Assembly: GCA_965223045.1 (NCBI GenBank)
Contig: CBDCVN010000013.1
Span: 4,167,840-4,231,839 of the forward strand
From: Trueperaceae bacterium
GTDB lineage: Bacteria; Deinococcota; Deinococci; Deinococcales; Trueperaceae
DNA length: 64,000 nt
Reading direction: 5' to 3'
The notes beneath the pieces are model-generated. The model was not told the DNA's origin, did not search any database, and saw nothing but the letters and a program-made list of their open reading frames with translations. Below are positions 1-64,000 of the stretch, one piece after another. The stretch's first letter is position 1. The number at the start of each line of letters is the position of its first letter. The translations under genes were made by a program, and so were the position numbers.

Positions 1-453
1 TTTTAAGGCAGCAGGGTTCATCATTACATGAAGGGCACTACCACACTTTTTACCCTACTTATCCCTCTATTACAAAAAATTTTGAATTGAGAACTATGTA
101 GCATTAGCTTTAGGCTCTATTTTTGGCGTTAGTATGTAGTGTTTAAGGAAGTACCCTGAATCACTTAAGATGGCTTCAGGAAAGCGTTAAGAAACCAAAA
201 TCCAATCTATTAAGCTATGGCTAGAGTCGAAATGAATTCTCATGATAAAGTATAGCTAAGGTTGGTATCCACTAGCCAAAGTTTAGAGCTATGTGTAGTT
301 TTAAAGCAACTATTGAGGTGTTACCCAAATAAGTCTGAGTAACTTCTGATAAATATAGACTCTTACTTGGACCTGTCACAGATTATCTCTTTTTGTCATT
401 TGCTAGGCTACCTTACCTAAGAATTGTACTAAACACTGAGAGGCTATATTGCG

Positions 454-2484
454 ATGATTGAAAGTTTGAAAGATATTCCTAACCCTTTCGGTAGCAGCCG
501 TGTAGACACACCTTTTCAGCAGCACTTGGATCTACAAGAAGTTTATCATACTGAGTTTGAAGTGCTTACTTCCGCACTAACAGATGTTAAGCGAGATCCT
601 AATCACCAAAGTAAAGGAGCTGTTTTAATTGGTGAGGCAGGTTCAGGTAAAACCCATTTGATAATGCGTTTGGCAAAGGAACGGTTAAAAACCAATCGCT
701 TACTATTTGTTCGTCAGCCTAACAATTCTAGTGCTGTATTTTATCATACATATGCTCGTATTCTAGAGTCGTTTGCTGAAAGAATCCCTAGTACAGGACA
801 CACCCAACTCGAGCAATTCCTAGCCAGCAGTTTTGCTGCCATTTTACGTTCCATACCTGAAGTTACTGAGTCAGTGCGAGGTAAAGAAGTAGTTCTGGCT
901 TTAGAAGAGCACGGCGTTTATCTCTACAGCCGTGCTAGGACAGAAGATACCGCAAAGTTCAGAGAAACATGGAAGTATATTTTGCGCTATACAGGCCGTT
1001 GGTGGACACGTACATATGCTAATGCTGGTTATGCCAAAGATATTCTTATAGGCATTGTTAAATTTTGCAGCTACACTGATCCTCACAAGAAAGAAGCAGT
1101 AATGCGTTGGTTAGCTGCTAACGAACTTACTGATAAAGAAATTGCTGATATTGGGCTTAATAATTGGCAAGATGAGATGAGTCGTGAGGAGTTTGCGCTC
1201 GAGGCTATGGCAGTTTTTGGCAAACTCTCAGTTTGTGATGAGCCGCTAGCAATAGTTTTTGATCAATTAGAGGGACTAAGCACAAAACCTGAACTGCTAG
1301 AAAGTTTTAGCAATGCTACTAAAGAAATGCTTACCTATGTTCCAAATAGCTTGATCATTTTCAATGTTTTTCCTAATCGCTGGGAAGAATTAAAACAGGC
1401 TCTTGATGATTCAGTAGTAGGCCGTATGTCTCAGTATGAGGCGCATTTACATCTTCCTGCAAAAGATAAACTCAAAGGAATCCTTCAACTTAATGCTCAA
1501 CAAGCAAATGTAGAAATAGATACTTTGTTTGAGCTATTTGAGCTTACTGATGTGCTCGAGCAGCGTTCAATTCGCAGTGTCTTAAATCGTGCAGCTGCTT
1601 ATTATCGTGCTAAAGCTAGCAACCTTTCTTTGCCGCTAGAAACTCCTACCCAAAAAGAGAGTGTGAGAGGCAACGTTGAAACAAAACTTGAAGAGCTAGA
1701 TACTGATGTTAAATTGATTAAGCAAGGGTTAAATAATCTTGCCACAGCTTTACAGCCTTTTATCGTGCAAGAAATTGATGTACAAGAAGGCGATCCTTCC
1801 AAATCTTTAAAATCTGCTGAAGATTCACCAGAACCTATTCTATCAGAAAAAACTGCTAAAACTATAAAAAAGAAAAAGACCAAAGCCTCAAAATTAACAG
1901 ATGCTTCAGAAACCTTAGATTCTCCTTCAAGCCTAGTGTCAGATTATTTAAAGCAAAAACGCGATTCTTTAGAGAAAGCTTATGATAAGCCCACTATCAT
2001 TGCTGATAGTGATGATCTTGGTAAGCTTAGAACAATTGTGGAAGCTTTCCAAAAACTCAAAACTTTAGACATAGAGCAACTAGAGTTAGGTAAATCTAAG
2101 TTACCTGAACATTTATTGCTTAAAACAGAGAAAAAATCTTATGTTTTAGGTTTCCTTAACATAAGTGGTGGTCCATTTACCACTCGTTTGAAGAACTTTA
2201 ATATAATCCTATCTAGGAATCCTGAAATACACTTTTATCTCATTCGTGATGTTAGGCAAGCAAACATTACTGGTGAGGTAGGCAAAGAAGAAGTTGAAAA
2301 GTTTAATAATGCTAATAATAGTACTTTTATTATTATGGACAAACAGCAAAGGCTCTCTTTTGAGTTAGCCTACTATTTAATAATAGGCATTCACAACCGT
2401 GATCTAGAAGTTGATCTGGAGGTTGCTTTACAAGAACTTGTGGTACAGTCAGAAAAGATGTGGTTATTTGATGTACTTATTTGA
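454..2484 (+). CDS. P-loop NTPase of unknown function (AAA/STAND-like, 676 aa)
   Basis: Walker A GEAGSGKTH and Walker B-like AIVFDQLE. A long charged linker and an unassigned C-terminal domain follow. No recognisable effector domain. Confidence 0.6.
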   Translation: MIESLKDIPNPFGSSRVDTPFQQHLDLQEVYHTEFEVLTSALTDVKRDPNHQSKGAVLIGEAGSGKTHLIMRLAKERLKTNRLLFVRQPNNSSAVFYHTYARILESFAERIPSTGHTQLEQFLASSFAAILRSIPEVTESVRGKEVVLALEEHGVYLYSRARTEDTAKFRETWKYILRYTGRWWTRTYANAGYAKDILIGIVKFCSYTDPHKKEAVMRWLAANELTDKEIADIGLNNWQDEMSREEFALEAMAVFGKLSVCDEPLAIVFDQLEGLSTKPELLESFSNATKEMLTYVPNSLIIFNVFPNRWEELKQALDDSVVGRMSQYEAHLHLPAKDKLKGILQLNAQQANVEIDTLFELFELTDVLEQRSIRSVLNRAAAYYRAKASNLSLPLETPTQKESVRGNVETKLEELDTDVKLIKQGLNNLATALQPFIVQEIDVQEGDPSKSLKSAEDSPEPILSEKTAKTIKKKKTKASKLTDASETLDSPSSLVSDYLKQKRDSLEKAYDKPTIIADSDDLGKLRTIVEAFQKLKTLDIEQLELGKSKLPEHLLLKTEKKSYVLGFLNISGGPFTTRLKNFNIILSRNPEIHFYLIRDVRQANITGEVGKEEVEKFNNANNSTFIIMDKQQRLSFELAYYLIIGIHNRDLEVDLEVALQELVVQSEKMWLFDVLI

Positions 2485-2497
2485 CAGGAAACAGGTT

Positions 2498-3280
2498 TTA
2501 GTAAAGTTGTGGCACAAAAGTTTGGTCAGCCATAGGAGGGCGTACATAACCCTTTTTATTTTGCAGTGGTGGTAATTCTATAGCTTTTGGTGTAAGGTCC
2601 TCATAAGGAATCATGCTTAATAGGTGTGCTATACAGTTAAGTCTAGCACGTTTTTTGTCATCACCATCTACTACCCACCAAGGTGCTTGCTTAATGTCGG
2701 TGTGAGCAAACATTTCATCTTTAGCTTTGGAATATTCTTGCCAACGTGATCGGGACTCAACATCCATAGGGCTAAGTTTCCAGCGTTTTGTGGGGTTTTT
2801 GATACGTGCCCTGAAACGTCTTTCCTGTTCATCATCACTGACAGAAAACCAGTATTTGACAAGTATTATGCCGCTTCTAATCAACATACGTTCAAATTCG
2901 GGGCAAGAGCGTAAGAATTCATGATACTCACCTTCAGTGCAAAAATTCATAACACGCTCAACACCAGCACGATTATACCAACTGCGATCAAAAAGCATCA
3001 TTTCACCTGCTGCAGGTAGATGGGGTACATAGCGCTGAAAGTACCATTGAGTTATCTCTCGTTCTGTAGGTTTACCCAGAGCAATAATGCGGCAAACACG
3101 TGGGTTAAGGGGTTGGGTTATACGCTTAATCACTCCACCTTTACCAGCAGCATCTCTACCTTCAAAAATAACCACAACCTTGAGACCTTTTTTGACAATC
3201 CACTCTTGAAGTTTAACAAGTTCAACTTGAAGTTTAGCCAGTTCTTTTTCATACTTGAAATTTTTTTGCTTCACTTTCAC
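2498..3280 (-). CDS. ppk2: Polyphosphate kinase 2 family protein
   Basis: Characteristic PPK2 P-loop VVIFEGRDAAGKGG and typical length (260 aa). Confidence 0.9.
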   Translation of the reverse strand: MKVKQKNFKYEKELAKLQVELVKLQEWIVKKGLKVVVIFEGRDAAGKGGVIKRITQPLNPRVCRIIALGKPTEREITQWYFQRYVPHLPAAGEMMLFDRSWYNRAGVERVMNFCTEGEYHEFLRSCPEFERMLIRSGIILVKYWFSVSDDEQERRFRARIKNPTKRWKLSPMDVESRSRWQEYSKAKDEMFAHTDIKQAPWWVVDGDDKKRARLNCIAHLLSMIPYEDLTPKAIELPPLQNKKGYVRPPMADQTFVPQLY

Positions 3281-3286
3281 TTTCCT

Positions 3287-4522
3287 TCACTTTACCAAGC
3301 TAAAGATAGTTAACCATCCTTGAAATATTAGTATAAATATACAAGAAAAAAAGCCTAGCAGTGGTAACCAACTTGGAATATTAAGACCATTGTCTTCCAC
3401 TTTAGTCTTTTTCCTTTTTACTTGCCACGCTGCCAGGTTAACACTGGAAAATACTACCAGAATAATACTGCTAGTTACTCGAGCAAGGGTAGTTAAAGGT
3501 AAGAAAAGAGCAAGAATTAAAATGACCCCAGTCATCACAGCAGTAGCGTGCAGTGGGGTTCGTGTTATTGGATTCACCTGGGCTAACCATGCTGGTGCTT
3601 GCTGCTTTTTGGCCATCCCGTAGGCTACTCGAGCTGCCATAATAATTTGTACCAATGCTCCATTAATCCCTGTCAGCATGCTAACAAGCCACAAACCCGT
3701 GGTAGAATACCAACCATAGTCGCTAACAATTTCAGCCATAGGAGTCTGGCTTGCTGCTAGCACGCTAGGTGAAACAGATAATACTGCTACTGTAGACACG
3801 ACCATATAAATCAGTGTGGTGAGTACAACACTAGTTAAAATAGCAATGGGCAAGGCCTTACGTGGGTTTTTTACCTCTTCAGCCATATTAACCATGTCCT
3901 CAAAACCTATGAAAGCATAAAAGGCTAAGAATGTTCCTGAAAAAACACCTATCCAAGCTTGGACATTTGCGGGCCACAAGAGTTCATGCCAACGCTCAGG
4001 TAGTTGCTCGAAATTATTTCCAGCAAGGACAATTATGTAGATTAATGCTACCACCTCAATAATAGTAATGGTAGCTACTAGCCCAACAGACTGACCAATA
4101 CCCCAGCCAGCCACCAATCCCATAGCCAGTACCAAAAGTAATATTCCTAGAGTATTAGGTACAGGCACAACATCTTGCAAGAAACCAATAGTAGCTACTG
4201 CTAGTGTGGCAGCAGAAACTACTCCAGTAGCAATTACCAGCCAGCCTATAGCAGTAGCAAAGATTTTACTATTGAATCCTTCTTTAATATATTGTACTTC
4301 TCCTGCGCTGACAGGGAAACGGGATGAGAGTGCAGCAAAGGAGGTAGCACTTAAAAATGCTAACAAGCCAGAAAAAATCAAAGCTATTGGGGCAAGCAAA
4401 CCAGCCTCGCCTGCTACTTTACCCAGCAAAGCATAAAAACCCCCACCCACCATAGTCCCTAGGCCATAAAGAATTAGTAGTGGTAGGGGGATAGCACGTT
4501 TGAGAGATAGATTATTTGTCAT
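3287..4522 (-). CDS. APC-superfamily amino acid permease
   Basis: 411 aa, about 12 hydrophobic helices, glycine-rich N-terminal helices typical of APC transporters. Confidence 0.8.
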   Translation of the reverse strand: MTNNLSLKRAIPLPLLILYGLGTMVGGGFYALLGKVAGEAGLLAPIALIFSGLLAFLSATSFAALSSRFPVSAGEVQYIKEGFNSKIFATAIGWLVIATGVVSAATLAVATIGFLQDVVPVPNTLGILLLVLAMGLVAGWGIGQSVGLVATITIIEVVALIYIIVLAGNNFEQLPERWHELLWPANVQAWIGVFSGTFLAFYAFIGFEDMVNMAEEVKNPRKALPIAILTSVVLTTLIYMVVSTVAVLSVSPSVLAASQTPMAEIVSDYGWYSTTGLWLVSMLTGINGALVQIIMAARVAYGMAKKQQAPAWLAQVNPITRTPLHATAVMTGVILILALFLPLTTLARVTSSIILVVFSSVNLAAWQVKRKKTKVEDNGLNIPSWLPLLGFFSCIFILIFQGWLTIFSLVK

Positions 4523-4724
4523 ACCTTACTGTAAAACTTCACTTAAGCATCCTTGTTGACCTTAATAGCCTACTCAATTTCATCAGAGTAGGTTCTTGCA
4601 TATAGAACAAGAGTTTGTAAGGTTTTTTAATTAGTTTGCTTTCTATATCGTAAAACACTGTCATGTCATTATAGCTCGTGACGTTTTTTCACATCTACTA
4701 ATTTCACTCTTTTAATTTTACCTA

Positions 4725-4980
4725 GGGCGTGTGGACACCTAGAGTGTGAAATCGAAAACGCTACTCTTAAATACCTTGGATAATCCTGATGCTGACGCAT
4801 AAGCTCCTCTGCAATCTGGTAAAGATTATGTGGTTAACAACTAAAGCTTCTCGCAAATATAGGCTATCCTGCAATTTTTTTTGGAATTCACATTTTCTAA
4901 CAAATAGCTGTCCTGAGACTGGCTAGTTTGGTTTTGATATCCAATGCGTGCAATTTCTGATTTGTCATATCCACATGCCC
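4725..4980 (+). mobile_element. 256-bp MITE, copy A
   Basis: Terminal inverted repeats GGGCGTGTGGACA / TATCCACATGCCC flanked by TA (within CTAG). Near-identical copies at 27127, 34428, 36509 and 48717. Confidence 0.85.
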
Positions 4981-5104
4981 TAGCACCCAAGCCCAGTTAA
5001 GTTACTGATTGTTTTGAGTCCCCATAAAAACTGCTAAATTCCTACCTCAAGGCAAATCACTAATCTAAACAAGTACCTCGCCAGCCTCAAACAAAGATAA
5101 TGCA

Positions 5105-5248
5105 TTACTCACGCAGCTCAGGAACGTGCACGTCCTCATAACGCTCAATAAGTACACCAAGTACTTCCATAAGAGAGGCTAATGGGTGTCTCTCATCTTC
5201 ACCCACTTCATCGGTTATTTTCAGTAGGTCATATTTGTTGCAAAGCAT
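5105..5248 (-). CDS. Small ORF (47 aa), possible N-terminal fragment of an HTH antitoxin-like protein
   Basis: Below the ORF-track cutoff. Translation is MLCNKYDLLKITDEVGEDERHPLASLMEVLGVLIERYEDVHVPELRE. The LxxLIExYE motif resembles N-termini of some HigA-type antitoxins (from memory). Confidence 0.2.
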   Translation of the reverse strand: MLCNKYDLLKITDEVGEDERHPLASLMEVLGVLIERYEDVHVPELRE

Positions 5249-5432
5249 GGCTATTGAGGAGTTTCTGTCTAGAACATGTTTTTCTCAATTCACACGTTCT
5301 TTTTAGGGCTATTGTTTTTTTAGCTGACAGGGGATGAAAATAATTACCTATACTTGTAGGTATGCCCTAAATAAAGAACAAGGGATTTCAATCCCTTGTT
5401 CACAGAAACATTCAATCTATATAAAAACTAAA

Positions 5433-7484
5433 TCAGTAACATGTTACTTTTGCCTCGACCAATAAACCTGTAATAGTTTCATTATTAGTCACTTCAGCTA
5501 TCAAAGTGTGTGTGCCACTTGGTGAGAAAGTTGCTGAAGTACTTGTCCCAACCTGGAAAGAATTGGCACCATTTGCTGGAAGATCAGATATTACCGTTCC
5601 ATCAAGCTTGAGTTTAGATCCGTTATCAGAAGCATGGCGAGCAACATCAAGAGTGCAAGTGGAAAAACCAGAGGGTATGGAAAAAGTTCTCTGATATATA
5701 TATAGATCAGGAACAAGTACCCAAGTATGCCAGTTTGCTATATCTGGTGGATTTGTTGGGTCATAGGGCATAATCCATTCGGAATGAGGTGAGTGACTAG
5801 CTTTCCAAGTTAAATTGGGAGCATATTCAGTAACAAAAGTTTCTGATGCGACATTAGCATTAGGAGGTGATAGAGTAATTATCCAATCATAGTCAAGGTC
5901 ACCAATATTAAGGGGAGTATTACTATCTATTGATCCAGTACTTATATCCAAACAAAATTCGACTGGATTCTTCGTGCAAGCCTCATCGTTCTGGGGATTG
6001 AAATTGCTAGGAGAGTCTACTGTTGCACAATTCTTAACTATATTTCCTTGCACTTCATTTGTAACATCAACTTCAAGAACTAAAGTTATGATATCACCGG
6101 GGTTAATTGGATAGGGGCCATTGTATTCACATACAACAACAGGGGTATAGGGAGGAGGACAACTCCAACCAGAAGAAGCAGAAACAAAATCAACTCCTGT
6201 AGGAAGAGTATCAGTTACAATAATCGGACCATTGTCTGGATCTGGGCCATTGTTGATAACATCTATAATGTAGTTAGCATGACTGCCTACAGTTAAAGTC
6301 TCTCCCTCTAAACGTTTTCTAATTGATAGGTCGGATCTACTAGGGGTAGAAACAGGATTTTTTATACAGCTTTCATTATTGCTGTCAACAGTATCACCAG
6401 CAGCACTTACTTGTGCACAATTCTTAGCTATATCATCTGCATCTGCCGTAACCTCAACAGTCAAACTCAATGTAACAAAGTTGTTTGGCCCGTTAGGAGG
6501 TATTGGTGGACCTGTGTAAATACATTCAACAACATCAGGGTTACTGCTTTGGAGGGTACAGCTCCAATTAGGGGGAGAGTTATCATCCCAAGAGATGCCT
6601 ACAGGAAGAGTATCTGTGATAATAATTGGACTGTTAGCTGTGCTATTAGCTGCACTAGGGCCACTATTAGTTACTTGTATGTTATAGGTAGATTGGCTGC
6701 CTATAGTTAAAGTATCTCCTTCAAGACTTTTCTCAATAGATAAATCAAACCTTTCTTTCTTTTTGTAGCATACATGTAAACGTGTAAAGTCAACAGATGT
6801 ATCGTCTTGTACTACTACATCAAGCTTTTGGCTGCTTCCTAAAGGTGTAAAGGCAGCTGATGTTTGATTTATTTCTATTGCTGCTACTATTTCACCATTA
6901 CTAGAAAGTGTATCAGTAATCCAAACAGTAGAATTAGTTAGGTCTACAATAGGAGATCCAAGAGTATTATTTGTTCCCACTTCTCCTATGGTTAACCCAT
7001 CATTATTTTGAATTTCTCCAATACCACGAACTCCTGTTATAAAAAATGCTTTAGTAATATTGCTTGGTAAGCCTGAAAAGGTCTCACCGAAGAACTGATT
7101 TACAAACTGTCCATCATATCCTGCAAGTGTTTGTTGCCCTTGGTAATTATTGGTACCAAGAATGACACTATTAAACCACGTATCCAAATTACTATCTGGT
7201 AGAGTAGTAGTAGTGGAAGGATCTACAACAACATCAAACATATCCAAAAATCCTTTTGTAATAACCTTATGTTGCTCTTCCCGACCACATTCAAATTTTG
7301 TCTCCAGCTTCTCAACTGCCAAAAGCAGTTCAGACTGTGGTTTATCATCAATTGGATTTTGACCACAGCTAGCCATCAAACCTAAAGCAAGAACTACCAA
7401 AAACCAAACTAACAATCTATATACTAATGCTCTATTCCACAATTGTGTTGAGCTAACTTCTGAAGTAAAAACTTTCTGATTCAT
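5433..7484 (-). CDS. Lipoprotein with two DUF11-type repeat domains and an unassigned C-terminal domain
   Basis: Lipobox LMASC after a hydrophobic leader. Two repeats carry the ITDTLPxG / VTDTLPTG signature typical of DUF11. Confidence 0.7.
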   Translation of the reverse strand: MNQKVFTSEVSSTQLWNRALVYRLLVWFLVVLALGLMASCGQNPIDDKPQSELLLAVEKLETKFECGREEQHKVITKGFLDMFDVVVDPSTTTTLPDSNLDTWFNSVILGTNNYQGQQTLAGYDGQFVNQFFGETFSGLPSNITKAFFITGVRGIGEIQNNDGLTIGEVGTNNTLGSPIVDLTNSTVWITDTLSSNGEIVAAIEINQTSAAFTPLGSSQKLDVVVQDDTSVDFTRLHVCYKKKERFDLSIEKSLEGDTLTIGSQSTYNIQVTNSGPSAANSTANSPIIITDTLPVGISWDDNSPPNWSCTLQSSNPDVVECIYTGPPIPPNGPNNFVTLSLTVEVTADADDIAKNCAQVSAAGDTVDSNNESCIKNPVSTPSRSDLSIRKRLEGETLTVGSHANYIIDVINNGPDPDNGPIIVTDTLPTGVDFVSASSGWSCPPPYTPVVVCEYNGPYPINPGDIITLVLEVDVTNEVQGNIVKNCATVDSPSNFNPQNDEACTKNPVEFCLDISTGSIDSNTPLNIGDLDYDWIITLSPPNANVASETFVTEYAPNLTWKASHSPHSEWIMPYDPTNPPDIANWHTWVLVPDLYIYQRTFSIPSGFSTCTLDVARHASDNGSKLKLDGTVISDLPANGANSFQVGTSTSATFSPSGTHTLIAEVTNNETITGLLVEAKVTCY

Positions 7485-7698
7485 TTAAATCATCCTTTTT
7501 ATTCTTAAAGTCACACCTTTTTGGTGTGCTAGATAGAAGCTTAAGTCAGATTTTGCAAATGAGCAGGAAAGTTAGAGTAACTTCTTTATAGAGCAAAAGT
7601 GCTTTTCTGGTAAGAGTTTTTTTAGCTAGTTTAGAAATGATACAAAGAGCAAGTCAAAGGCTACAAAGTTTCCTAGCTAGATTGGTAAAAATTATTAG

Positions 7699-8628: not shown

Positions 8629-8648
8629 CTGTAACCACCTCCTGCATC

Positions 8649-11327: not shown

Positions 11328-11425
11328 TTAGCTGGTCCTTTTTTGGAGTTGTGATTACTTTATTTATTCCTACACCTTGATCTGCATATTTCATTAACCA
11401 AGCAGCTTGTTAATCAGCAAAAGAT

Positions 11426-14431: not shown

Positions 14432-14501
14432 GCTACTACAAAGTTTTGATGCTTGCAGGGAATTTCTCGCAAATTTTTAGCCAACATGAGGTTCTGTAAG
14501 T

Positions 14502-15271: not shown

Positions 15272-15291
15272 TATTTGTATTTATTATCAGC

Positions 15292-52853: not shown

Positions 52854-52876
52854 AAAAACATTATAACTCTTTGCTT

Positions 52877-52894
52877 TAGAGGGTGTTTGGAAAT
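52877..52894 (+). repeat. Solo copy of the IS5-family terminal repeat (TA plus GAGGGTGTTTGGAAAT)
   Basis: 18/18 identical to the left end of the IS at 30109-30126. No similarity continues beyond it. Confidence 0.7.
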
Positions 52895-53441
52895 GGCTCA
52901 TGATGGATTCCTGGGGCTTAGTTTACAAAAATATACGCTTAGCTCCCTGTTGAACAAGGATATTCTCAAGTTAGCCTTAAATTTCATCTGATCAATGTTT
53001 TAAGTGTACTGTACAAAGTTATTGCAAATATTGAAAATTCAGGCCCTTAAAACACATCAAAAGCCTATTCCTAAGCAGAGTTCAGGGAGCAAGGTAAGGG
53101 AAGGGCACTTGTCATTAAAGCAGTGTTGTAGGGGTTCTGAACCCCTACGATCGATACTTATAAATAAGTTCTGTGACTAAATGCTGGGGGCTTGGTAACA
53201 CATTTGGGGTCATTTGCAGGACGCAGAGCGTCCAAGGTATGTATTCCCAAGCAGAGCTTAAGGTGATCATCCCAGTTGTATAGGACTCTGGTAGCTTTCC
53301 TAGTTACTTTTGATGTTGATTTGCTTGACAATTATATACGTGCTGTTTTGCTCGTACACCAAGGTAATTGTAGCATAGTAAAGTTTTTAGGCAAACTGGC
53401 AGTTATAATGTTTTGATGGAAAGTGATTTGAGGAAATTAAT

Positions 53442-54161: not shown

Positions 54162-54173
54162 AACCCGCGAATA

Positions 54174-56114: not shown

Positions 56115-56622
56115 GGGCATACAAGTCAAAATAAAATTACCACACTGCTACATTATCATTACCTAATCTTCTATTCTAATAAGGGTAAGGCTAAGTTAAA
56201 ATTTCTACTTTAGTGTTTTTGAGACTGAAAGGATGTCTAGTAAATTAGAGTGCAGGGCAGGTTATCTAGACACCTATAACTGTCACTTTCAAAAATGATT
56301 GTGATGCAGAAAACCCTATCCCTATGACTTTATAAGAATAATGTAAGGGTAAGCCGATTATTATATTTACTAATCCCTATTATTTTCATGGGGATATTAT
56401 AGAGTAAGATTAGGCAACTTACCATTCTACAACGTACTATTCTACTCGGAAGTTTATAATGAAGAACTTGAAAACAATTAGTCCTAAACATGCCCAAACA
56501 AGATTTTAGGTGTGCTACACACTATATCCAAGCTTTTTTGTTTTATTGGTGGGTTATTTAATGATCAAGTAGCAAATTATACTAAGGTGGATTTTAAAGT
56601 CTTAAGTGTATAAGGAGAATAT

Positions 56623-57567
56623 ATGAAAATTTTTGTCCCTTTAATTAGCGTTCTTATTGTCTCTGGTTTTATATATATTTTTTACTCCTCTAACCAAGAT
56701 GTAGAAGAAATTCCCATAATACCCCTTACAAACACTTTTCCAGAAGGTCGAATCCTTACTGTAGGTTCTATAGCAGTAGAAGACGTTCAGGATGAGGTTA
56801 ATGACTTTTTGCCCTTTACTGAATTTATAGCTGGTAGGCTTAAAGAAAGAGGTGTTGTTGGTGGGCAAGTAAAAATAGCACGTGATATACCTGAAATGGC
56901 AACCTTTTTAGAGCAAGGAGAGGTAGATATTTTTATTGACAGCCCTTTTCCAGCACTTACTATGGTCCAGCTAGGGGTGGCAGAGCCTATGTTAAGACGT
57001 TGGAAAAAAGGAGTTGCCTCTTACCATACCATCTTCTTTGCTTGTAAAAGCGATGAAATTACTACCCTTGATGATTTGAAAGGTAAGATTGTTGCTTTTG
57101 ACTCTCCTTCATCTACTTCAGGATACTTGCTTCCTAAAGCTATGCTTTTGCAACTAGGATATACATTAAAAGAATACAAAAGTGTTTCCCAGAGAGTCTC
57201 AGATGAGAATATAGGATATGTTTTTTCTGGGGATGATGTTAACACTATGGCATGGGTATTGGAAGGGAAAACTCACGTAGCTGCTATAGATAACCATAAT
57301 TTTTACAAGGAAGCAGGGGAACGTTTAGAGGAGCTTGAAATTTTGGCTAGATCACCAGAGATTGCAAGGCATCTAGTAGTTAAAAGCCATAAATTGGATG
57401 AAGAGATTGCTAGTGCGATAAAAGAGACTTTGACCCTTTTAGATCAAGATGAGGCTGGAAAAGTGATGCTTTTTGAGTTCCAAAAAACAGTTAAATTTGA
57501 TGAAATTCCTGAAGATAGCTTGGAAAAAACTTTAGAGTTAATGCAAATTGTGGAAAGCGAGCTATAA
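56623..57567 (+). CDS. PhnD-like periplasmic substrate-binding protein (membrane-anchored)
   Basis: N-terminal anchor. The layout resembles phosphonate/phosphite-type binding proteins. Confidence 0.6.
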   Translation: MKIFVPLISVLIVSGFIYIFYSSNQDVEEIPIIPLTNTFPEGRILTVGSIAVEDVQDEVNDFLPFTEFIAGRLKERGVVGGQVKIARDIPEMATFLEQGEVDIFIDSPFPALTMVQLGVAEPMLRRWKKGVASYHTIFFACKSDEITTLDDLKGKIVAFDSPSSTSGYLLPKAMLLQLGYTLKEYKSVSQRVSDENIGYVFSGDDVNTMAWVLEGKTHVAAIDNHNFYKEAGERLEELEILARSPEIARHLVVKSHKLDEEIASAIKETLTLLDQDEAGKVMLFEFQKTVKFDEIPEDSLEKTLELMQIVESEL

Positions 57568-57577
57568 CTGATAAGTT

Positions 57578-60388
57578 ATGAAATTAGCTTTCTGGCCTTT
57601 AGATTTGCGTGGCAAGTACTTATTTTTCAGTACACTTATTCTTGCTATTATAGTTGTTTATTTTACTTTTGATAATACAAGCCATCAAGAAAAGGTAATA
57701 AAGGAAAGCTTTACCAAACAAGCGCAAGTAACCATAGGTTTTTTAGAAGAGCTATCTATAAATCATTATTATTATCTTGACCTTGAAGCCTTACGCTTTC
57801 TTTTAGAAGACGTTAAAACCCTGCATAATCTTACCTATGCGTACTATCTTGATCCTAAAGGGCGTGTTTTAACTGATGGCACGAATAGTAATATTTATAA
57901 ATACAAGTTTTTAGACGATGAATTAAGCAGAAAACTACCCAATATAACTCAAGGTGTTCAAGCAGTTTCCAAAAATGTTTTTGATGTGCTTGAGCCCATA
58001 GATTTAGGCAATGAGCGGCTAGGAGCTGTGCGGCTTGGCTTTTCTCTTAAAAAGATTAATCAAGACATCATAGCTGTACGTAAGCGTAATTTCCTAATTG
58101 GTGTAGGACTATTACTTATTTTTAGTTTGATAAATTACTCTGCAGCCAGTTATATAGTTAGACCAATTAAAAAGCTTACCTTGGCCTCTTATGCTGTTGC
58201 TGAAGGGAATTTTAGTAGGCCAATAAAAATTGATAGAAAAGACGAGCTTGGACAATTGGAAAAAGCCTTTAACCATATGATGCGCCAAGTTGAAATATCA
58301 AATCATGAACTCTCCAAAGCACGGAGGTATACTGAGCAAATCATACAAACAATAAGTAGCATACTAATAGTCACTGATTGTAAAGGAAGTATTCAGTTCG
58401 CAAACACAGCTGCTTGTACTAGCTTAGAGTATGAGGAAGAAGGGTTGCTTACACAATCTATAGAAATACTCCAAACAGAACCACTTATTCTTCCAAGTAA
58501 ACCCTTACCCGAAGATAAATATGTTGGTGATGTTGAAACTCATCTCAAGACAAAAAAAGGTACAACTATTCCGGTATGGTTGCAGAGTTCTTTTTTGTAT
58601 GAGGGTAAAGAATTGAATTCTATAATTTGGGTTGCTCGAGATATTAGCAAATTCAAACAAGTGACAGAGGCTTTGAGTGTCTCAGAAAACTATCAAAGTG
58701 CTATGATTAAGGCTGTTCCTGACCTGATGTTTATCTTTAGTAAAGAAGGAATTTATATTGATTTATTCCTAGATGATACACATCCTCAAGTAGAGCCACT
58801 TGTAGGCAAAGATATTACAGAAGTTGAGTTTTTGCCCAAAAAAGTTGCCGAAGAAATGAAGTACAAAATTGCACTAACAGCAAGGTGTGGACAAATACAA
58901 ACTATGGAATATACTCTTCCTGTTCCCAAAGAAGAAACTCACTATGAGGCCCGTCTAACATCTATAGATGGCGAGCGTGTGCTCATGCTAGTTAGGGATA
59001 TAACAGAGCATAAAAAAGTAGAAGAAGCTTTGCGTTATAAAGCGCTTCATGATACTTTAACGGGCCTTGCAAATAGAGCAAACTTCAGTAGCGTGCTTCA
59101 GCGTACACTAGATTTGTGTAGTCGTCATCCTAATTTCGTCTTTGCTGTATTGCTCTTAGATCTTGATGGCTTTAAGCATGTTAATGATAGCCTTGGTCAT
59201 ATTGCTGGTGATGAAATGCTATGTGAAATGTCAAGGAGGCTTAGGCATTGTATTAGACAACAAGATACAGTAGCCCGTCTTGGTGGTGACGAGTTCTCAA
59301 TTTTATTGATGGATATTGATAATGTCCACGGTGCCATTCAAATTGCTGAGCGTATACAAGAAGAGCTTGCTATACCTTTCCTCATAAGTGATCAAGAAAT
59401 CTTCTCGAGTGTTAGTATCGGAATTACTTTAAACACTTTTAAATACAAAGAGCCTAGCGAAATCTTGCGTGATGCAGATATTGCCCTTTACCGTGCCAAA
59501 GATAGTGGCAAGGCTAAATACGAAGTTTTTGATTCTGCCTTACACCAACAAGCAGTGCAGCGCCTACAAATTGCTAGTGAACTTAGGTATGCTGTTAAAG
59601 AGCTTAGCTTTTTTCCGCACTACCAGCCTATCATTGATCTCAAATCTCAAAAAATTACAGGTTTTGAAGCTTTAGCTCGTTGGCAACGTTCTAAAAATAA
59701 TCTTGAATATCCTGATAGCTTTATTGGAGTTGCTGAGGAAACACAACAAGCTGTTGAGATAGATTACATAATTTTAAATAAAGCCTGTCAGCAATTAGCC
59801 CGCTGGCAAAAAGAAACAGGCCTCGAGCTATCAATAAATACTAATTTATCGGGGCATCAATTTGTACGATCTGACCTTGTGGAACAAATAGAAATGGCAC
59901 TTAAAAGAAGCGGTGTAGATAGCCAATACCTACACCTAGAAATTACTGAGAGTGTTCTTTTACAAAATCCTGAGCTAGCAAGTAACATGCTTAACCAACT
60001 TAAATCCTTAGGAGTAAAAATCTATCTAGATGATTTTGGTACAGGTTACTCATCACTTAGTTATCTTCATAAGTTCCCTATAGATACTTTAAAGTTAGAT
60101 CGTTCCTTTATTTATGACATGGATTTTTCAAGTAATAGCTGTAAAATAGTACAGGCCATTATTGCTATGGCTCAAAATCTTGGTATTAGTGTGGTAGCTG
60201 AAGGTATTGAAAGAATAGAGCATTTTCAAAAGCTATATGATTGGGGCTGTACCTATGGTCAAGGTTATTTTTTCAGTAAGCCATTGGATATAAGCCAAGC
60301 TGATATCCTTTTGACAAATACAGATGCAATGGAAGCTAAAAATTTTGCTAATATTCACTCAGGTAGCAAAAATCACCTTTTAAATTAG
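57578..60388 (+). CDS. Membrane sensor with HAMP, PAS, GGDEF and EAL domains
   Basis: Two transmembrane helices flank a periplasmic segment. HAMP, PAS regions, RLGGDEFSILL (GGDEF), EALARW and DDFGTGYSSLSYL (EAL). Confidence 0.9.
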   Translation: MKLAFWPLDLRGKYLFFSTLILAIIVVYFTFDNTSHQEKVIKESFTKQAQVTIGFLEELSINHYYYLDLEALRFLLEDVKTLHNLTYAYYLDPKGRVLTDGTNSNIYKYKFLDDELSRKLPNITQGVQAVSKNVFDVLEPIDLGNERLGAVRLGFSLKKINQDIIAVRKRNFLIGVGLLLIFSLINYSAASYIVRPIKKLTLASYAVAEGNFSRPIKIDRKDELGQLEKAFNHMMRQVEISNHELSKARRYTEQIIQTISSILIVTDCKGSIQFANTAACTSLEYEEEGLLTQSIEILQTEPLILPSKPLPEDKYVGDVETHLKTKKGTTIPVWLQSSFLYEGKELNSIIWVARDISKFKQVTEALSVSENYQSAMIKAVPDLMFIFSKEGIYIDLFLDDTHPQVEPLVGKDITEVEFLPKKVAEEMKYKIALTARCGQIQTMEYTLPVPKEETHYEARLTSIDGERVLMLVRDITEHKKVEEALRYKALHDTLTGLANRANFSSVLQRTLDLCSRHPNFVFAVLLLDLDGFKHVNDSLGHIAGDEMLCEMSRRLRHCIRQQDTVARLGGDEFSILLMDIDNVHGAIQIAERIQEELAIPFLISDQEIFSSVSIGITLNTFKYKEPSEILRDADIALYRAKDSGKAKYEVFDSALHQQAVQRLQIASELRYAVKELSFFPHYQPIIDLKSQKITGFEALARWQRSKNNLEYPDSFIGVAEETQQAVEIDYIILNKACQQLARWQKETGLELSINTNLSGHQFVRSDLVEQIEMALKRSGVDSQYLHLEITESVLLQNPELASNMLNQLKSLGVKIYLDDFGTGYSSLSYLHKFPIDTLKLDRSFIYDMDFSSNSCKIVQAIIAMAQNLGISVVAEGIERIEHFQKLYDWGCTYGQGYFFSKPLDISQADILLTNTDAMEAKNFANIHSGSKNHLLN

Positions 60389-60521
60389 TTACCTATGTTT
60401 AAACAAATTTTTGCCTCATAAACATAAAGGCAAAAAATATTGTTCAGGTGAGCCAGTTTGCACAGATGCTTAGGAAGTGTTAGCTCTATCAAAATGATAT
60501 GTCCCTAGAGAGAATTTCTCT

Positions 60522-62348
60522 TTAAAGAAGGAGCCTTTTTGGAGAACTATAATTGGCAAATAACTCTTGCCAGCGCCTATCTACAACTTCTTTTATCTCT
60601 TTTGTCATTACGATCTTCTCAGGCCAGGTGCGTGTAAAGCCTTCTTCAGGTAATTTGAGTGTTCCATCTATTATAAAACAAGGAACAGAGCCCAAAATTT
60701 GTATGTCTCTTTGAGGGTCAATATTATTCAGCATTGTCCATATACAATCTTCAAAGTCTTGAGGGTCAGTCAGTTCATCAAGCACCGCTATTAGACGCAC
60801 ATCTTTAGCAGCTTCTTGCTGACTTGCCCATTTACCAAGAAGCTTTCCTTGATTAGGACGCTCTTTTTTAGTGGTTATAAACCAAAATCCCCCAGCAGGC
60901 TGATGTTGAGCAACAATATCAGGGTTTTGTGGTAATTCTTCTTTATTGCGTTCAGGGTTTGCCATCCAAGAAGTTTGACCTCCTTCTTCTGGGTGTTTAA
61001 CAGTGCCATCTATAATGATTTTGCTGCCATAACTCCATGATTGGCTCGAGTGATCAAGCACATCAATTGGACCTTTAGCAAATTGGCAATCTCTACCTGG
61101 CAAAGCATTTTTTAACACTGTTTGCCAAAATTTAAGATGCTCTTGGGGTTTAACATTTTCATCAGTAACTAGTAGGACTTTAGCTAGCATCATTTGCCCT
61201 AAACCTAAAAGGCCATTAGCTACCTTATAAGCTTGTCCGGGATAGCTTTTTTCAATAATTATATTTACTAAGTTATGTGCTATGCCTGCTGGTGGCATAC
61301 TATAATCTTTAAGTTCAGGTAGAATGAGCTGCGCAGGGACTAAGAAAATTCTTTCTGAAGCTTCAATAAAATAAGCGTCCTCCATAGGTGGTCTTCCTAC
61401 TATGGTTGCAGGGTAAATAGGATTTTTGCGCATAGTTATAGCTGTCACATGAAAAATAGGATAAAGGTCAGGCAGGGTATAAAAACCAGTATGGTCACCA
61501 AAGGGACCTTCCAAGCGCCAATCTTCTTCTGGATCAATATAGCCTTCCAGAACAAACTCTGCTTCAGCAGGCACCTCTAAATCAACAGTTATCCCTTTAA
61601 CAAGCTTAATAGGCTTATTACGCAAAAAACCAGTCAGCGAAAACTCATTGATGCTAGGTATAGCAGGTAAGGGAGCAGTAGCTGCATAAGTAAGAGCAGG
61701 ATCACCACCTAGTGCAACAGCCACCTCTAATTTCTGACCTGCTTTTTTAGCACTTTCCAAGTGCCTTGCCCCTGTCTTATGGCGTTGCCAATGCATACCT
61801 GTAGTGGATTTATCAAAGACCTGCATACGGTACATACCAACATTAACCTCTTTAGTTAGAGGGTCTTTACTAATAACTAATGGTAGGGTGATAAAAGGTC
61901 CACCATCATCTGGCCAACACTTAAGAACAGGTAATTTAGTTAAGTCAATTTCATCACCTTGCCAAATTACTTCTTGCACAGGGGCCTTCTTAACTTTTTT
62001 AGGTGGCAATGAGGTAACTGTTTTTAGCTTTGGTAAATTTGTTGCTAAACCTAGGAGGCCACCGCCTACCTTTACATTCAATAGCTCCCTTAACCTTTTA
62101 GTAATATCATCAAGGGATTCTACTCCTAGAGCTAGGGCCATACGTTTTTGTGAACCATAAAGGCCAATAACTAAAGGGAAGTCTTTTCCTATAACTTTTT
62201 CGAAATAAAGTGCAGGCCCACCTTTTTTAACCACTCTGTCAGCAATTTCGGTTATCTCTAGCTCAGATGATACAGGTTTACTAATTTCTACGATCTCATC
62301 ACGTTTTTTCAGCTCGGAGATGAAATTCCTAAGGTTTATATAATGCAT
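60522..62348 (-). CDS. UbiD-family decarboxylase (long form, menaquinone/ubiquinone biosynthesis type)
   Basis: The N-terminus LRNFISELKKRDEIVEISKPVS...GGPALYFEKV and conserved core look typical of UbiD-family enzymes. 608 aa. Confidence 0.8.
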   Translation of the reverse strand: MHYINLRNFISELKKRDEIVEISKPVSSELEITEIADRVVKKGGPALYFEKVIGKDFPLVIGLYGSQKRMALALGVESLDDITKRLRELLNVKVGGGLLGLATNLPKLKTVTSLPPKKVKKAPVQEVIWQGDEIDLTKLPVLKCWPDDGGPFITLPLVISKDPLTKEVNVGMYRMQVFDKSTTGMHWQRHKTGARHLESAKKAGQKLEVAVALGGDPALTYAATAPLPAIPSINEFSLTGFLRNKPIKLVKGITVDLEVPAEAEFVLEGYIDPEEDWRLEGPFGDHTGFYTLPDLYPIFHVTAITMRKNPIYPATIVGRPPMEDAYFIEASERIFLVPAQLILPELKDYSMPPAGIAHNLVNIIIEKSYPGQAYKVANGLLGLGQMMLAKVLLVTDENVKPQEHLKFWQTVLKNALPGRDCQFAKGPIDVLDHSSQSWSYGSKIIIDGTVKHPEEGGQTSWMANPERNKEELPQNPDIVAQHQPAGGFWFITTKKERPNQGKLLGKWASQQEAAKDVRLIAVLDELTDPQDFEDCIWTMLNNIDPQRDIQILGSVPCFIIDGTLKLPEEGFTRTWPEKIVMTKEIKEVVDRRWQELFANYSSPKRLLL

Positions 62349-62414
62349 GTTGCTGATTCTAACTTTTCTTGGGTGAGATTGTTCCCTATCTTGTAAGCCA
62401 AAGGATACTAAAGA

Positions 62415-63206
62415 CTACCAAACCATTTTGAGTTGATTGACAACTTCACCATACCACTTGATTTGCCTTACCGAGTTACTATTTGTTTGTTTTCTGCCAG
62501 TATCCAAATAAGTAGCATAGTTTCTACCTACTTTAGTTAGTGTCCAATGCAAACGGCCTTTGTCATCTCTGTAAAAAGATTGGAAACCTGCTAGCTCGAG
62601 CAAAGAATTAGTTCTACGTGCAGAAAGATTTAATTTTTTCCCTAGTTCTGTAACGGTAAGTAGCTCGTCTTTGTTTATGGGTTTTGGTATTAGGTGGGTT
62701 GCTCCTATTAGCTCGAGCACATCTACACCAGTTAATTGTTTAGTAGCTTTATTTGCTGAAACTATGGTTTGATTGTGATTAGGGTGAACCAATTTAGTAA
62801 TTTCCAAAGAAGTTTTAAAGAAGTTGTAAGCGTTTAGAGCTTCTTCTATTGTGAGCTGTGATTGAAGTGAGTAACTACCTGTTTTTCTAATTGCTGGTAG
62901 CACTTCCTCAAACCACCAGTCACGAATAGCTTCTGCTTGTGGAAGTTTAGAGCTAAAGATAAGACGATTGATATCTCCTTCATTAATTAACTTTGTTTGG
63001 GGGTCTAATTTTAGGGAGCGTGCTTCACGCTCCCCCAACAATTTGGCTGCTGGACAAGCATGCTTGCAATGTCTAGCAATAGCATCGACTGTGTTACTAT
63101 ATCCAAATATGCCTGCTATATCTTTAGCGGCAGCCCAAACCTCACCAGCTATAATAAATGTTCTAACCTTTTTACCTTCAAAGTTGAAAATCTCAATATT
63201 ATTCAT
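62415..63206 (-). CDS. BRO-N domain protein (phage antirepressor-like)
   Basis: N-terminus FNFEGKKVRTFIIAGEVWAAAKDIAGIFGYSNTVDAIARHCK matches the BRO-N pattern. Confidence 0.65.
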   Translation of the reverse strand: MNNIEIFNFEGKKVRTFIIAGEVWAAAKDIAGIFGYSNTVDAIARHCKHACPAAKLLGEREARSLKLDPQTKLINEGDINRLIFSSKLPQAEAIRDWWFEEVLPAIRKTGSYSLQSQLTIEEALNAYNFFKTSLEITKLVHPNHNQTIVSANKATKQLTGVDVLELIGATHLIPKPINKDELLTVTELGKKLNLSARRTNSLLELAGFQSFYRDDKGRLHWTLTKVGRNYATYLDTGRKQTNSNSVRQIKWYGEVVNQLKMVW

Positions 63207-63421
63207 TAGTTGCCCTCAACCCTATTTTGTAATTGAGAAATAAGTTGTGTAGGAAAATGGAAGTAAATAACTATGTTAAGATTCATCTGAATCCTTTCAT
63301 TACGTTTAGGTTTCAACGAAGGCGGAATGACTTTAGCGGTTGTTAACCGCCTTCATTGTTATTTGTAGCTTAGCATAATTAATTCAGAATGCCAATACTT
63401 ACTGCATTTACTTATTTAGAG

Positions 63422-63571
63422 TTATGGGACGTTATGAACTAAAGGATACTGAGGACAAGTTTTTTCATATGGTCTGCCAGCCATGTATTTTTCCCACTCT
63501 TTTTGGGTGAGGTTGCGTCCTGCTTTGTAGCAAGCTTGTTCTTTCCAGATTGCTCGAGAAAATCGGTATCG
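63422..63571 (-). pseudogene. Short C-terminal gene remnant next to an IS
   Basis: Open frame AIWKEQACYKAGRNLTQKEWEKYMAGRPYEKTCPQYPLVHNVP, bounded upstream by an in-frame stop. Confidence 0.3.
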
Positions 63572-63605
63572 TCAACAATACTTCCTACACTATAAGGGTT
63601 TGCTA

Positions 63606-64000
63606 GGGCATGTTGATAAAGTAAGTCATAATTTGCAAACTTAGGATATGAAAGTTAAATTAACAGACGAGCAATGGCAAAAAATACTAAATTTTCTCAA
63701 GGGTTACAAGATAGTGTGTATGTTTAGGAAATTTAGAATTGGCAATGAGGATCAATGCAGGAAGTTTATTGAAGGAGTCCTTTGGGTAACTAAAAGTGGT
63801 GCACAGTGGCGTTTGTTGCCAGAAGAATATGGAAAATGGAATAGTGTTTTTAAGCGTTTTGACCGCTGGGGCAAACAAGGAATTTGGCAAGCGATGTTTG
63901 AACACTTTGCTGAGGATGCTGATATGGAAAGTATAATGATAGATAGCACCATTGTAAGAGCTCACTCCTGTGCAGCAGGAGGAAAAGGGGGAAACGAAGA
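63606..64000 (+). mobile_element. IS5-family insertion sequence, copy 2 (runs off the window)
   Basis: Starts with TA plus GGGCATGTTGATAAAG. The sequence matches the inverted copy at 34669-35529. Confidence 0.85.
63648..64000 (+). CDS. IS5-family transposase, 5-prime partial
   Basis: Encodes [23 protein letters not shown]..., identical to the 34720-35487 product as far as the window extends. Absent from the ORF track because no stop is reached. Confidence 0.85.

Follow-up and report, generated by a model that had tools for sequence, protein, structure and literature searches.

Iterated CTCGAG in a low-GC Deinococcota lineage: an apparent counterpart of the cyanobacterial HIP1 palindrome

Introduction

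Why should one six-letter palindrome recur along a chromosome far more often than base composition predicts? The question is raised by the hexamer CTCGAG in a 64-kb stretch of DNA from a Trueperaceae bacterium (assembly GCA_965223045.1, contig CBDCVN010000013.1, positions 4,167,840 to 4,231,839), the whole of which is called the window here. A first-pass annotation, made from the letters of the window, had likened the pattern to the highly iterated palindrome (HIP) of cyanobacteria, with a different word. The role of HIP sequences has been debated ever since the description of HIP1, with a single phylum to draw on. The cyanobacterial repertoire consists of HIP1 itself, GCGATCGC, and the alternates GGGATCCC, TCGATCGA, GGCGCC, rCCGGy, and GCsGC (Elhai 2015, PMC4390886; Xu et al. 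2018, PMC5861425).

We find that CTCGAG is specifically over-represented in the long-resident DNA of the window, independently of codon usage, that the excess extends across the lineage, with sites retained at orthologous positions and others newly gained, and that mobile DNA lacks it. With guarded confidence, we favor the view that CTCGAG is a HIP-like word of a Deinococcota clade, maintained at the DNA level, that it is the target of an orphan methyltransferase (one with no restriction partner), and that the resulting marks serve a chromosome-wide process.

Results

CTCGAG is the most over-represented hexamer of the window

A pattern search returned 35 CTCGAG sites, at the very coordinates listed in the first-pass annotation (22 starting between 808 and 26343, 12 between 51086 and 63553, and one at 31078), and 12 of the 35 extend to the full octamer GCTCGAGC, in agreement with its estimate of about a third. 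The window has a guanine-cytosine (GC) content of 39.3% and a CpG odds ratio of 0.55, so that the word contrasts with a general CpG deficit. The chance expectation, guessed earlier to be in single digits, is 5.96 +/- 2.16 by dinucleotide shuffling (maximum 11 in 100 shuffles) and 5.6 under Markov models of order 1 and of order 2, rising to 10.8 at order 3. The excess also survives these Markov controls within the window: CTCGAG ranks first among the 4096 hexamers for over-representation (z = 17.6), and the model of maximal order, in which the word itself dominates the pentamer counts, still expects only 23.5 sites (z = 4.2).

The excess is specific to this word. The hexamers and octamers ranked next all overlap CTCGAG, no other palindromic hexamer exceeds 1.8 times its expectation, and in core DNA (the 41.7 kb outside positions 26.7 to 49.0 kb) 34 of the 69 TCGA tetramers fall within CTCGAG while the other nine NTCGAN classes stand at expectation. 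The octamer is in further excess, with 12 copies against 0.43 by shuffling and against 1.4 given 35 hexamers and the base composition (p = 4e-9), and HIP1 itself, GCGATCGC, has 0 sites in the window. A G at position -1, or a C at +1, adjoins 63% of half-sites (background 20%), and the information content of the flanks past position -1 is below 0.2 bit. Repeat elements as carriers of the word were considered and rejected, the flanks of all 35 sites being unique and the copies of repeated elements in the window, both those resembling miniature inverted-repeat transposable elements (MITE-like) and the insertion sequences (IS), being free of it.

Nearest-neighbor spacing is close to exponential in the window and in the related loci described below, with a coefficient of variation (CV) of 0.93-1.19; the low-GC loci hold a small excess of pairs 6-30 bp apart (6 vs. 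1.5). This bears on the proposal that CTCGAG forms a binding-site array, recognized by an abundant DNA-binding protein involved in nucleoid structure, segregation, or replication control, with selection acting on binding whether or not the sites are methylated. A connection with chromosome structure has been argued for HIP1 (PMC5861425), and the retention and clade-wide upkeep of CTCGAG over 37-69% GC that we report below fit selection at the DNA level. We nonetheless rate such an array as highly unlikely: the spacing is random-like, no candidate protein was found, and the co-occurrence of a dedicated methyltransferase in relatives would be left unexplained.

The word is concentrated in core DNA and at chance level in an accessory mosaic

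Core DNA holds 34 of the sites, or 0.82 per kb, where 2.9 are expected, which brings the observed-to-expected ratio from 6.3 for the whole window to about 12. The interval from 26.7 to 49.0 kb has a single site against 18.2 at core density (P = 2.4e-7). Its own composition predicts 2.6-3.3, and its genes carry 0 coding sites where synonymous resampling predicts 2.5; the count of this accessory mosaic is thus at chance level, without avoidance. That the gap marks foreign DNA, as first suspected, is borne out by its content, which comprises IS4/5-type and other DDE transposases, a Tn3 transposon, two resolvases, and a RepA gene (Pfam RPA) with iterons, and by its higher GC. Housekeeping genes, by comparison, lie in core block 1 (mnmA, trpF, def, fmt, PPK2, and a pair of M16 peptidase genes). 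Transposase-bearing stretches on three related low-GC contigs (L146, L151, and L152) are likewise CTCGAG-free, and in practice the word offers a sensitive means of spotting recent acquisitions in these genomes.

The one site in the mosaic had been placed inside a MITE-like element. It in fact lies outside any such element, 4 nt beyond the right inverted repeat (31055-31074) of an IS4/5-type IS, and between 18-nt inverted repeats at 29961-29978 and 31117-31134.

Codon usage does not explain the excess

The 32 coding sites are distributed over phases 0, 1, and 2 as 21, 7, and 4, on both coding strands. Resampling of synonymous codons with the genes' own usage, which is conservative in that this usage already includes the word, predicts 3.8, 0.96, and 0.13, so that phase 1 is enriched 7-fold and phase 2 about 30-fold. 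The earlier statement that sites occur in several frames and on both strands therefore holds, every phase being enriched and both strands used, with the correction that there is a strong phase bias toward in-frame Leu-Glu (21/32, or 66%). The same test on L146 gave 15, 8, and 2 sites in the three phases against 1.2, 1.5, and 0.06. In the pooled low-GC loci, for which gene calls are approximate, density is 0.75 per kb outside called genes and 0.89 in coding DNA. Because all three phases are enriched and noncoding DNA of the low-GC loci carries the word at comparable density, codon usage is not the cause of the excess, and the annotation's own refuting scenario, in which one or two codon-pair preferences would account for everything, does not apply.

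These data weigh directly on the idea that CTCGAG is a coding by-product, arising from a Leu-Glu codon-pair preference or persisting as the decaying relic of a high-GC ancestor that preferred CTC and GAG. The predominance of in-frame CTC-GAG speaks for it, as does the finding that in high-GC relatives 13-33 sites per 20 kb are accounted for by codon usage alone, and some window sites coincide with sites of those relatives (e.g., alignment column 1215). Against it, CTC is otherwise a rare leucine codon in the window's genes (106/1428), 20% of CTC codons stand directly before GAG, and Leu-Glu is spelled CTC-GAG 21 times and CTC-GAA in a single instance. The preference for G(-1)/C(+1), moreover, affects a wobble position where A or T otherwise prevails. 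Retention does not extend to other GC-rich words, and, as detailed below, low-GC genomes have gained sites where high-GC relatives encode other amino acids and have lost sites that high-GC relatives share. The by-product or relic explanation is largely refuted by this analysis, and we regard it as very improbable. Codon context shapes where CTCGAG can sit, with the Leu-Glu frame clearly the easiest place, and does not create the excess.

The excess is a trait of the lineage, with Deinococcus excepted

Judged by its protein matches, the window belongs to a low-GC (38-39%) Deinococcota lineage, most of the relatives that we fetched being at about 60-70% GC. The best matches of its MnmA are to metagenome-assembled genomes (MAGs) labeled Trueperaceae or Deinococcales (80-83% identity), followed by Deinococcus at ~52%. 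Its M16 peptidase is 100% identical to a database protein from a 5,160,581-bp contig; three contigs of the long-read metagenome ERZ25072999 encode proteins of 88%, 81%, and 73% identity to it, and Marinithermus hydrothermalis encodes one of 66%. The closest relative obtained is L146, at 88% protein identity. A cyanobacterial affinity, hinted at by Uma2, STAND NTPase, and DUF11 genes, was ruled out by the genome matches. The low-GC lineage as sampled here comprises the window and loci L001, L062, L003, L146, L151, and L152, and is at 37-40% GC with a CpG odds ratio of 0.55; the last three represent three related low-GC species found together in ERZ25072999.

CTCGAG leads the palindromes in nearly all enriched loci. 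The low-GC loci (window core, L001, L062, and L003) contain 79 sites against 4.6 expected (17x), mid-GC loci 202 against 14 (14x), and the ~60% GC metagenome contigs with the closest M16 genes 672 against 101 (6.7x). The further low-GC contigs follow suit, with 27 sites against 0.8-1.7 expected in L146, 15 against 1.2-1.7 in L151, and 16 against 0.9-1.5 in L152. The word is also the top palindrome in 21.5 kb of Marinithermus hydrothermalis, with 57 sites where composition predicts 9.5-13.6. Counting coding sites only, codon resampling predicts 26.7 +/- 4.0 for Marinithermus, where 47 occur, and 14.1 +/- 3.4 for a Meiothermus MAG, where 30 occur. Deinococcus departs from this pattern, with 45 sites against 140 (0.32x) in 732 kb pooled from loci L014-L058. 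The comparison with related genomes that the annotation called for thus identifies the excess as a lineage-wide trait of Trueperaceae-like bacteria, Marinithermus, and Meiothermus, Deinococcus excepted. Across these enriched lineages density stays at 0.7-3.8 per kb over 37-69% GC, a range in which the chance expectation shifts more than ten-fold; preferred codons supply most of that density in high-GC genomes and almost none of it in the low-GC lineage. The flank requirement varies, G(-1)/C(+1) being found in > 90% of half-sites in L002, L003, L005, and L010, in about 60% in the window, L001, L062, and L059, and near background in L006-L008 and L011.

Existing sites are retained and new ones arise

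Retention was followed in nine syntenic contig pairs, the longest obtained, with > 11 kb aligned and a nucleotide identity of 77-87%; the pairs share sequences, so that the resulting numbers are consistent with one another and not independent. A CTCGAG is matched by CTCGAG in the partner at frequencies of 0.49-0.81, about double the 0.24-0.52 seen for all hexamers, and in the pooled pairs it ranks 4th of 645 hexamers for conservation. About half of conserved Leu-Glu dipeptides are written CTCGAG; where a pair offers 18 or more such positions, a site occurs with probability 0.71-0.93 if the partner has one and 0.11-0.40 otherwise. The remaining synonymous spellings of Leu-Glu agree between partners at frequencies of just 0.1-0.5 in most pairs (0.73 for the closest pair), and third positions are 62-67% identical.

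Gains and losses can be read from the M16 peptidase genes. The window and L146 have 3/5 window sites in common, with three further sites specific to L146. In the M16 codon alignment, all four low-GC genomes share the site at 18918, at a place where Leu-Asn or Met-Asn is encoded in the high-GC outgroups; it is thus a gain in the low-GC clade and involved an amino-acid change. Other M16 sites are confined to one or two low-GC genomes, and one that the three high-GC relatives have in common is found in none of the four low-GC genomes. Given both gains and losses, the low-GC density is not a decaying relic.

The identity of the alleles facing CTCGAG is informative about a neutral mutational ratchet, in which methylation-linked or very-short-patch-type (VSR-type) repair would convert near-cognate mismatches to CTCGAG without the sites having any function, as modeled for HIP1 (Elhai, PMC4390886). 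A ratchet fits the excess, the G...C flank preference of some lineages, the slow accumulation, and the irregular spacing. Yet the low-GC and mid-GC pools show no clear depletion in any of the nine one-substitution neighbor classes, and the depletion of transition neighbors by which a VSR-type (Dcm/Vsr) process is recognized is not seen: over three GC pools, observed-to-expected ratios are 1.00, 0.82, and 1.24 for CTTGAG/CTCAAG and 0.87, 0.92, and 0.94 for TTCGAG/CTCGAA. The alleles facing sites are mainly CTGGAA and CTGGAG, synonymous C/G transversions and not transitions, and the methylation known in relatives is N6-methyladenine (m6A). This base has no deamination-repair pathway. We therefore judge a ratchet to be quite unlikely.

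Published methylomes list orphan methyltransferases for the word in relatives

The published methylome survey of Blow et al. (2016, PMC4752239) lists in its S3 Table active type II m6A enzymes for cTcgAg, with no partner nuclease listed, in three Thermaceae: M.Mhy14884I of Marinithermus hydrothermalis (Marky_0034; 94.6% of sites modified), M.Mru1279II of Meiothermus ruber (Mrub_2385; 99.5%), and M.Mch9957IV of Meiothermus chliarophilus (94.1%). The table has no CTCGAG enzyme entry for Meiothermus silvanus, and the main text is silent on Deinococcota and on over-representation of CTCGAG; an orphan CTCGAG enzyme is also reported from Nocardia, where motif clusters lie beside dnaA. Marinithermus combines in one genome measured orphan CTCGAG methylation (published methylome) and the iterated word (our 21.5-kb locus). 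These enzymes recognize the same word in the same phylum as the window, and here, too, an orphan methyltransferase conserved in the clade probably targets CTCGAG. The survey reports methylation, orphan status, and the origin-near clusters of Nocardia directly; for the window's genome, by contrast, we infer the enzyme, the methylation, and its function. The argument that a classical restriction target ought to be avoided loses its force where the matching methyltransferase works as an orphan, which is how those methylomes list it.

A methyltransferase motif screen of 1,498 open reading frames (ORFs) from the window and clade loci gave 11 candidates, eight of which were checked against Pfam. The only DNA methyltransferase among the eight is at L102:4767-6014 (N6_N4, SPPY motif), which we set aside as a CTCGAG enzyme, since it belongs to an apparent defense cluster and has no evident link to the word. 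It is part of a three-gene segment (1213-6014) on a Trueperaceae-like contig of ~62% GC, with a 744-aa ATPase-like protein, a 437-aa protein, and the 415-aa N4/N6 methyltransferase itself, that looks like a defense or restriction-modification island. A database search seeded with M.TaqI (its sequence confirmed identical to PDB 1AQJ) returned only close TaqI homologs, of at least 56% identity, none of them from the window's genome or Marinithermus. Another search, seeded with the M16 peptidase of Marinithermus, yielded neither Meiothermus ruber nor M. silvanus.

Discussion

In light of these results and the published methylomes, we propose that a clade that includes Trueperaceae-like lineages, Marinithermus, and Meiothermus shares an iterated CTCGAG, with the octamer GCTCGAGC preferred in the window's lineage. 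A process that reads DNA and not protein holds the word at roughly one per kb in long-resident chromosomal DNA. Sites settle wherever the coding sequence tolerates them, most readily at Leu-Glu; existing ones are kept far above synonymous alternatives as new ones keep arising, and recently acquired DNA such as the 26.7-49 kb mosaic has yet to accumulate them. The likeliest reader of the word would be a clade-conserved orphan N6-adenine methyltransferase producing CTCGm6AG, as in Marinithermus and Meiothermus, whose methylated or transiently hemimethylated sites could be put to use by a process that spans the chromosome and requires roughly one mark per kb. Candidate functions include strand or self marking for repair, replication control, and recombination of incoming DNA, for which HIP1 proposals and the Dam GATC system offer precedents.

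Several observations pull the other way. Spacing is near-exponential (CV about 1) and reveals no constraint at a testable scale. The density of high-GC relatives comes mostly from codon usage, with an excess over resampling of only about 2x and none in L012, and Thermus brockianus has 16 in-frame CTC-GAG where its codon usage predicts 33. The retention statistics derive mostly from ~60% GC metagenome contigs, the window's own lineage being alignable over a few kb only. Finally, the window and the fetched clade loci contain no CTCGAG-linked methyltransferase gene, and the methylation link rests on relatives at about 65% protein identity.

A more specific form of the proposal, which we put forward tentatively and hold to be doubtful as it stands, is that the system is an independently evolved, adenine-methylation counterpart of HIP in Deinococcota outside Deinococcaceae, in which the orphan CTCGm6AG enzyme and the word are maintained together and read by a chromosome-wide process. 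Density near one per kb would then have been kept despite a drift from about 65% to 38% GC, and possible readers would be mismatch-repair strand discrimination (the phylum lacks MutH), replication control, or self-recognition in natural transformation.

The likeness to HIP1 extends to most descriptive features, and the comparison drawn by the first-pass annotation stands on that level. Both are short GC-rich palindromes, forming an octamer of the type G C-xxxx-G C around a 6-bp core, and both reach about 0.5-2.5 sites per kb as an extreme outlier among words. Both occur independently of codon usage in coding and noncoding DNA, are spread lineage-wide, are retained at orthologous positions above control words, and have in relatives a methyltransferase without a restriction partner; the flank requirement varies by lineage for CTCGAG as it does for HIP1 derivatives. 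Descriptions of HIP systems further include a 10-90 kb periodicity in site density and a cognate methyltransferase in the same genome. The differences lie in the phylum, the host being a member of Deinococcota and not a cyanobacterium, in the word, which is neither HIP1 nor among the alternates listed in 2015 (PMC4390886), in the chemistry, the mark in relatives of the window being on N6-adenine where that of HIP1 is on C5-cytosine (plus Dam-type GATC), and in the persistence of CTCGAG across 37-69% GC. A search of the literature found no report of CTCGAG over-representation in Truepera, Thermus, Meiothermus, or Deinococcota, although most subscription journals lay outside it and an earlier description is possible; a report of CTCGAG in the honey bee (PMC3903499) is unrelated. 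The iteration of CTCGAG in Deinococcota is thus apparently an undescribed counterpart of HIP1.

Uptake sequences offer a second comparison. Their known genomic signature has five features, namely about one copy per kb, occurrence in all frames, retention, nonsynonymous gains, and absence from new islands, and CTCGAG has the same five. This favors an uptake or recombination-signal drive, in which CTCGAG alleles would be preferentially taken up or integrated in competent populations, methylation being optional in recognition. Thermus and Deinococcus are naturally competent. For HIP1, two preprints (10.1101/2024.09.10.611283 and 10.64898/2026.06.24.733823) tie the word to transformation. The DNA uptake sequences (DUS) of Neisseriaceae and the uptake signal sequences (USS) of Pasteurellaceae resemble CTCGAG further in that their use of all frames carries a permissive bias and in having clade dialects, and the density of about 1 per kb in core DNA with absence from recent DNA is seen in our window as well. 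These sequences are, however, non-palindromic words of 9-12 nt with a known receptor or uptake bias, whereas CTCGAG is a 6-8 bp palindrome and would be a poor discriminator; competent Deinococcus, moreover, avoids it. Competent members of the phylum are not known to have any uptake specificity. On balance we consider an uptake drive unlikely.

Restriction-site avoidance (XhoI-type) involves the same word with the opposite sign: the window's clade has a 6-17x excess, and under-representation is found only in the Deinococcus loci (0.32x). In these loci GTCGAC and TTCGAA are also low, besides the about three-fold shortage of CTCGAG. Thermus brockianus has purged TCGA outside CTCGAG. Its locus (L153; AP025593.1, 1797301-1818488) has 21 TCGA where composition predicts tens, of which 18 are CTCGAG, the other NTCGAN words numbering 0-2 each, and an M.TaqI-like methyltransferase gene lies beside gyrB with no recognizable nuclease gene adjoining.

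If the HIP-like reading favored here is correct, a second, unrelated lineage with the same signature, another word, and in relatives another methylation chemistry would show convergence, and would separate general traits of HIP systems (an orphan enzyme, about one site per kb, retention, and slow accumulation) from those specific to cyanobacteria. The low-GC lineage is the most informative in this respect, composition and codon usage predicting almost no sites while density is kept. The window is one instance of a clade-wide trait in a clade that is partly cultivable, and Meiothermus, Marinithermus, and possibly Thermus would provide a second, tractable system in which to study HIP function.

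Site Inventory and Neighboring Features

Table 1. CTCGAG sites, sequence blocks, and mobile elements of the window. Gene calls for site contexts are approximate; phase 0 is in-frame CTC-GAG (Leu-Glu), phase 1 is xCT CGA Gxx, and phase 2 is xxC TCG AGx.
Feature	Positions	Phase	Location and remarks
CTCGAG	808..813	0	STAND NTPase gene 454-2484 (+)
CTCGAG	1198..1203	0	STAND NTPase gene 454-2484 (+)
GCTCGAGC	1554..1561	0	STAND NTPase gene 454-2484 (+)
CTCGAG	3478..3483	1	permease gene 3287-4522 (-)
CTCGAG	3628..3633	1	permease gene 3287-4522 (-)
CTCGAG	8236..8241	0	gene 7699-8628 (-)
GCTCGAGC	9873..9880	2	gene 8649-11327 (-)
CTCGAG	9899..9904	1	gene 8649-11327 (-); 25 bp from preceding site
CTCGAG	11528..11533	0	gene 11426-12406 (-)
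GCTCGAGC	12540..12547	0	gene 12403-13500 (-)
GCTCGAGC	13203..13210	0	gene 12403-13500 (-)
CTCGAG	13823..13828	0	gene 13739-14431 (+)
CTCGAG	14061..14066	1	gene 13739-14431 (+)
CTCGAG	18895..18900	1	M16 peptidase gene 18372-19850 (+); in L152, not L146/L151
GCTCGAGC	18917..18924	0	M16 peptidase gene 18372-19850 (+)
GCTCGAGC	19565..19572	0	M16 peptidase gene 18372-19850 (+); CTCGAG at same position in L146, Marinithermus (L147), and L071
GCTCGAGC	20440..20447	0	paralogous M16 gene 19847-21376 (+)
GCTCGAGC	21177..21184	2	paralogous M16 gene 19847-21376 (+)
CTCGAG	22859..22864	0	gene 22415-22912 (-)
CTCGAG	24304..24309	0	fmt gene 23755-24681 (+)
CTCGAG	25634..25639	0	gene 24695-26230 (+)
CTCGAG	26343..26348		intergenic; final site of core block 1
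CTCGAG	31078..31083		noncoding; sole site of accessory mosaic
CTCGAG	51086..51091	1	MscS-like gene 49104-52901 (-)
CTCGAG	52083..52088	0	MscS-like gene 49104-52901 (-)
CTCGAG	52305..52310	0	MscS-like gene 49104-52901 (-)
GCTCGAGC	54134..54141	0	Uma2-family gene 53442-54161 (+)
GCTCGAGC	55787..55794	0	ABC transporter gene 54174-56114 (+)
CTCGAG	58635..58640	1	GGDEF-EAL gene 57578-60388 (+)
CTCGAG	59404..59409	2	GGDEF-EAL gene 57578-60388 (+)
CTCGAG	59822..59827	0	GGDEF-EAL gene 57578-60388 (+)
CTCGAG	61045..61050	2	UbiD gene 60522-62348 (-)
GCTCGAGC	62594..62601	0	Bro-N gene 62415-63206 (-)
GCTCGAGC	62711..62718	0	Bro-N gene 62415-63206 (-)
CTCGAG	63553..63558		intergenic; 45 nt ahead of IS copy starting 63603
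Core block 1	1..26700		22 CTCGAG, 0.82 per kb
Accessory mosaic	26701..49000		one CTCGAG; GC up to 49%
Core block 2	49001..64000		12 CTCGAG, 0.80 per kb
MITE-like copy	4722-4985		core block 1
MITE-like copy	27124-27387		mosaic
MITE-like copy	34425-34670		mosaic
MITE-like copy	36504-36767		mosaic
MITE-like copy	48714-48974		mosaic
IS4/5-type IS	30109-31074		mosaic
Iterons	32274-32443		seven tandem 22-bp repeats, TGGTGTGTGAAATATCGAAAGT-like
RepA gene	32346-33485		Pfam RPA
IS4/5-type element	34671-35540		mosaic
Inverse copy of the preceding	63603-64000		100% identical; cut by window end
Tn3-family transposon	41076-44943		37-nt inverted repeats at its ends
Tn3 transposase gene	41181-44198		1005 aa
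Tn3 resolvase gene	44330-44905

The mosaic contains several recognizable mobile units (Table 1). The MITE-like element is 264 nt long and begins with CTAGGGCGTGTGGA and ends with CCACATGCCCTAG; its five copies, 98.8-100% identical, all lack CTCGAG, and the first and last of the four in the mosaic form identical direct repeats (27124 to 27384 and 48714 to 48974) that bracket it. The RepA gene, with the iterons at its start (32274-33485 together), looks like a plasmid replicon integrated into the chromosome. A megablast comparison of a 25-kb portion of the window with plasmids found no match. The Tn3-family transposon, with its transposase and resolvase genes, is the GC peak of the window at 46-49%. 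No dnaA or origin region was seen among the window's genes.

Further observations concern the genes that carry sites. The two adjacent M16 paralogs have GCTCGAGC in the same context, GCTGATGTTTTGCTCGAGCCA (18906-18935 and 20429-20458), and relatives L146 and L152 have a third M16 paralog. The Uma2-family gene of the window (PD-(D/E)XK, annotated as putative restriction endonuclease) ends with GCTCGAGC, and L151 has three genes of this family within 6 kb (12914-13468, 16275-16895, and 17882-18598); HIP1-rich cyanobacteria, too, are known for a large expansion of this family.

A second octamer, TTTGACCG/CGGTCAAA, has 9 copies in the window against 0.8 expected, at 29964, 30575, 31124, 35270, 43076, 43768, 51824, 54699, and 63858. 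Several of them lie within or beside IS elements, and those at 29964 and 31124 fall within the 18-nt inverted repeats around the IS that precedes the sole CTCGAG of the mosaic.

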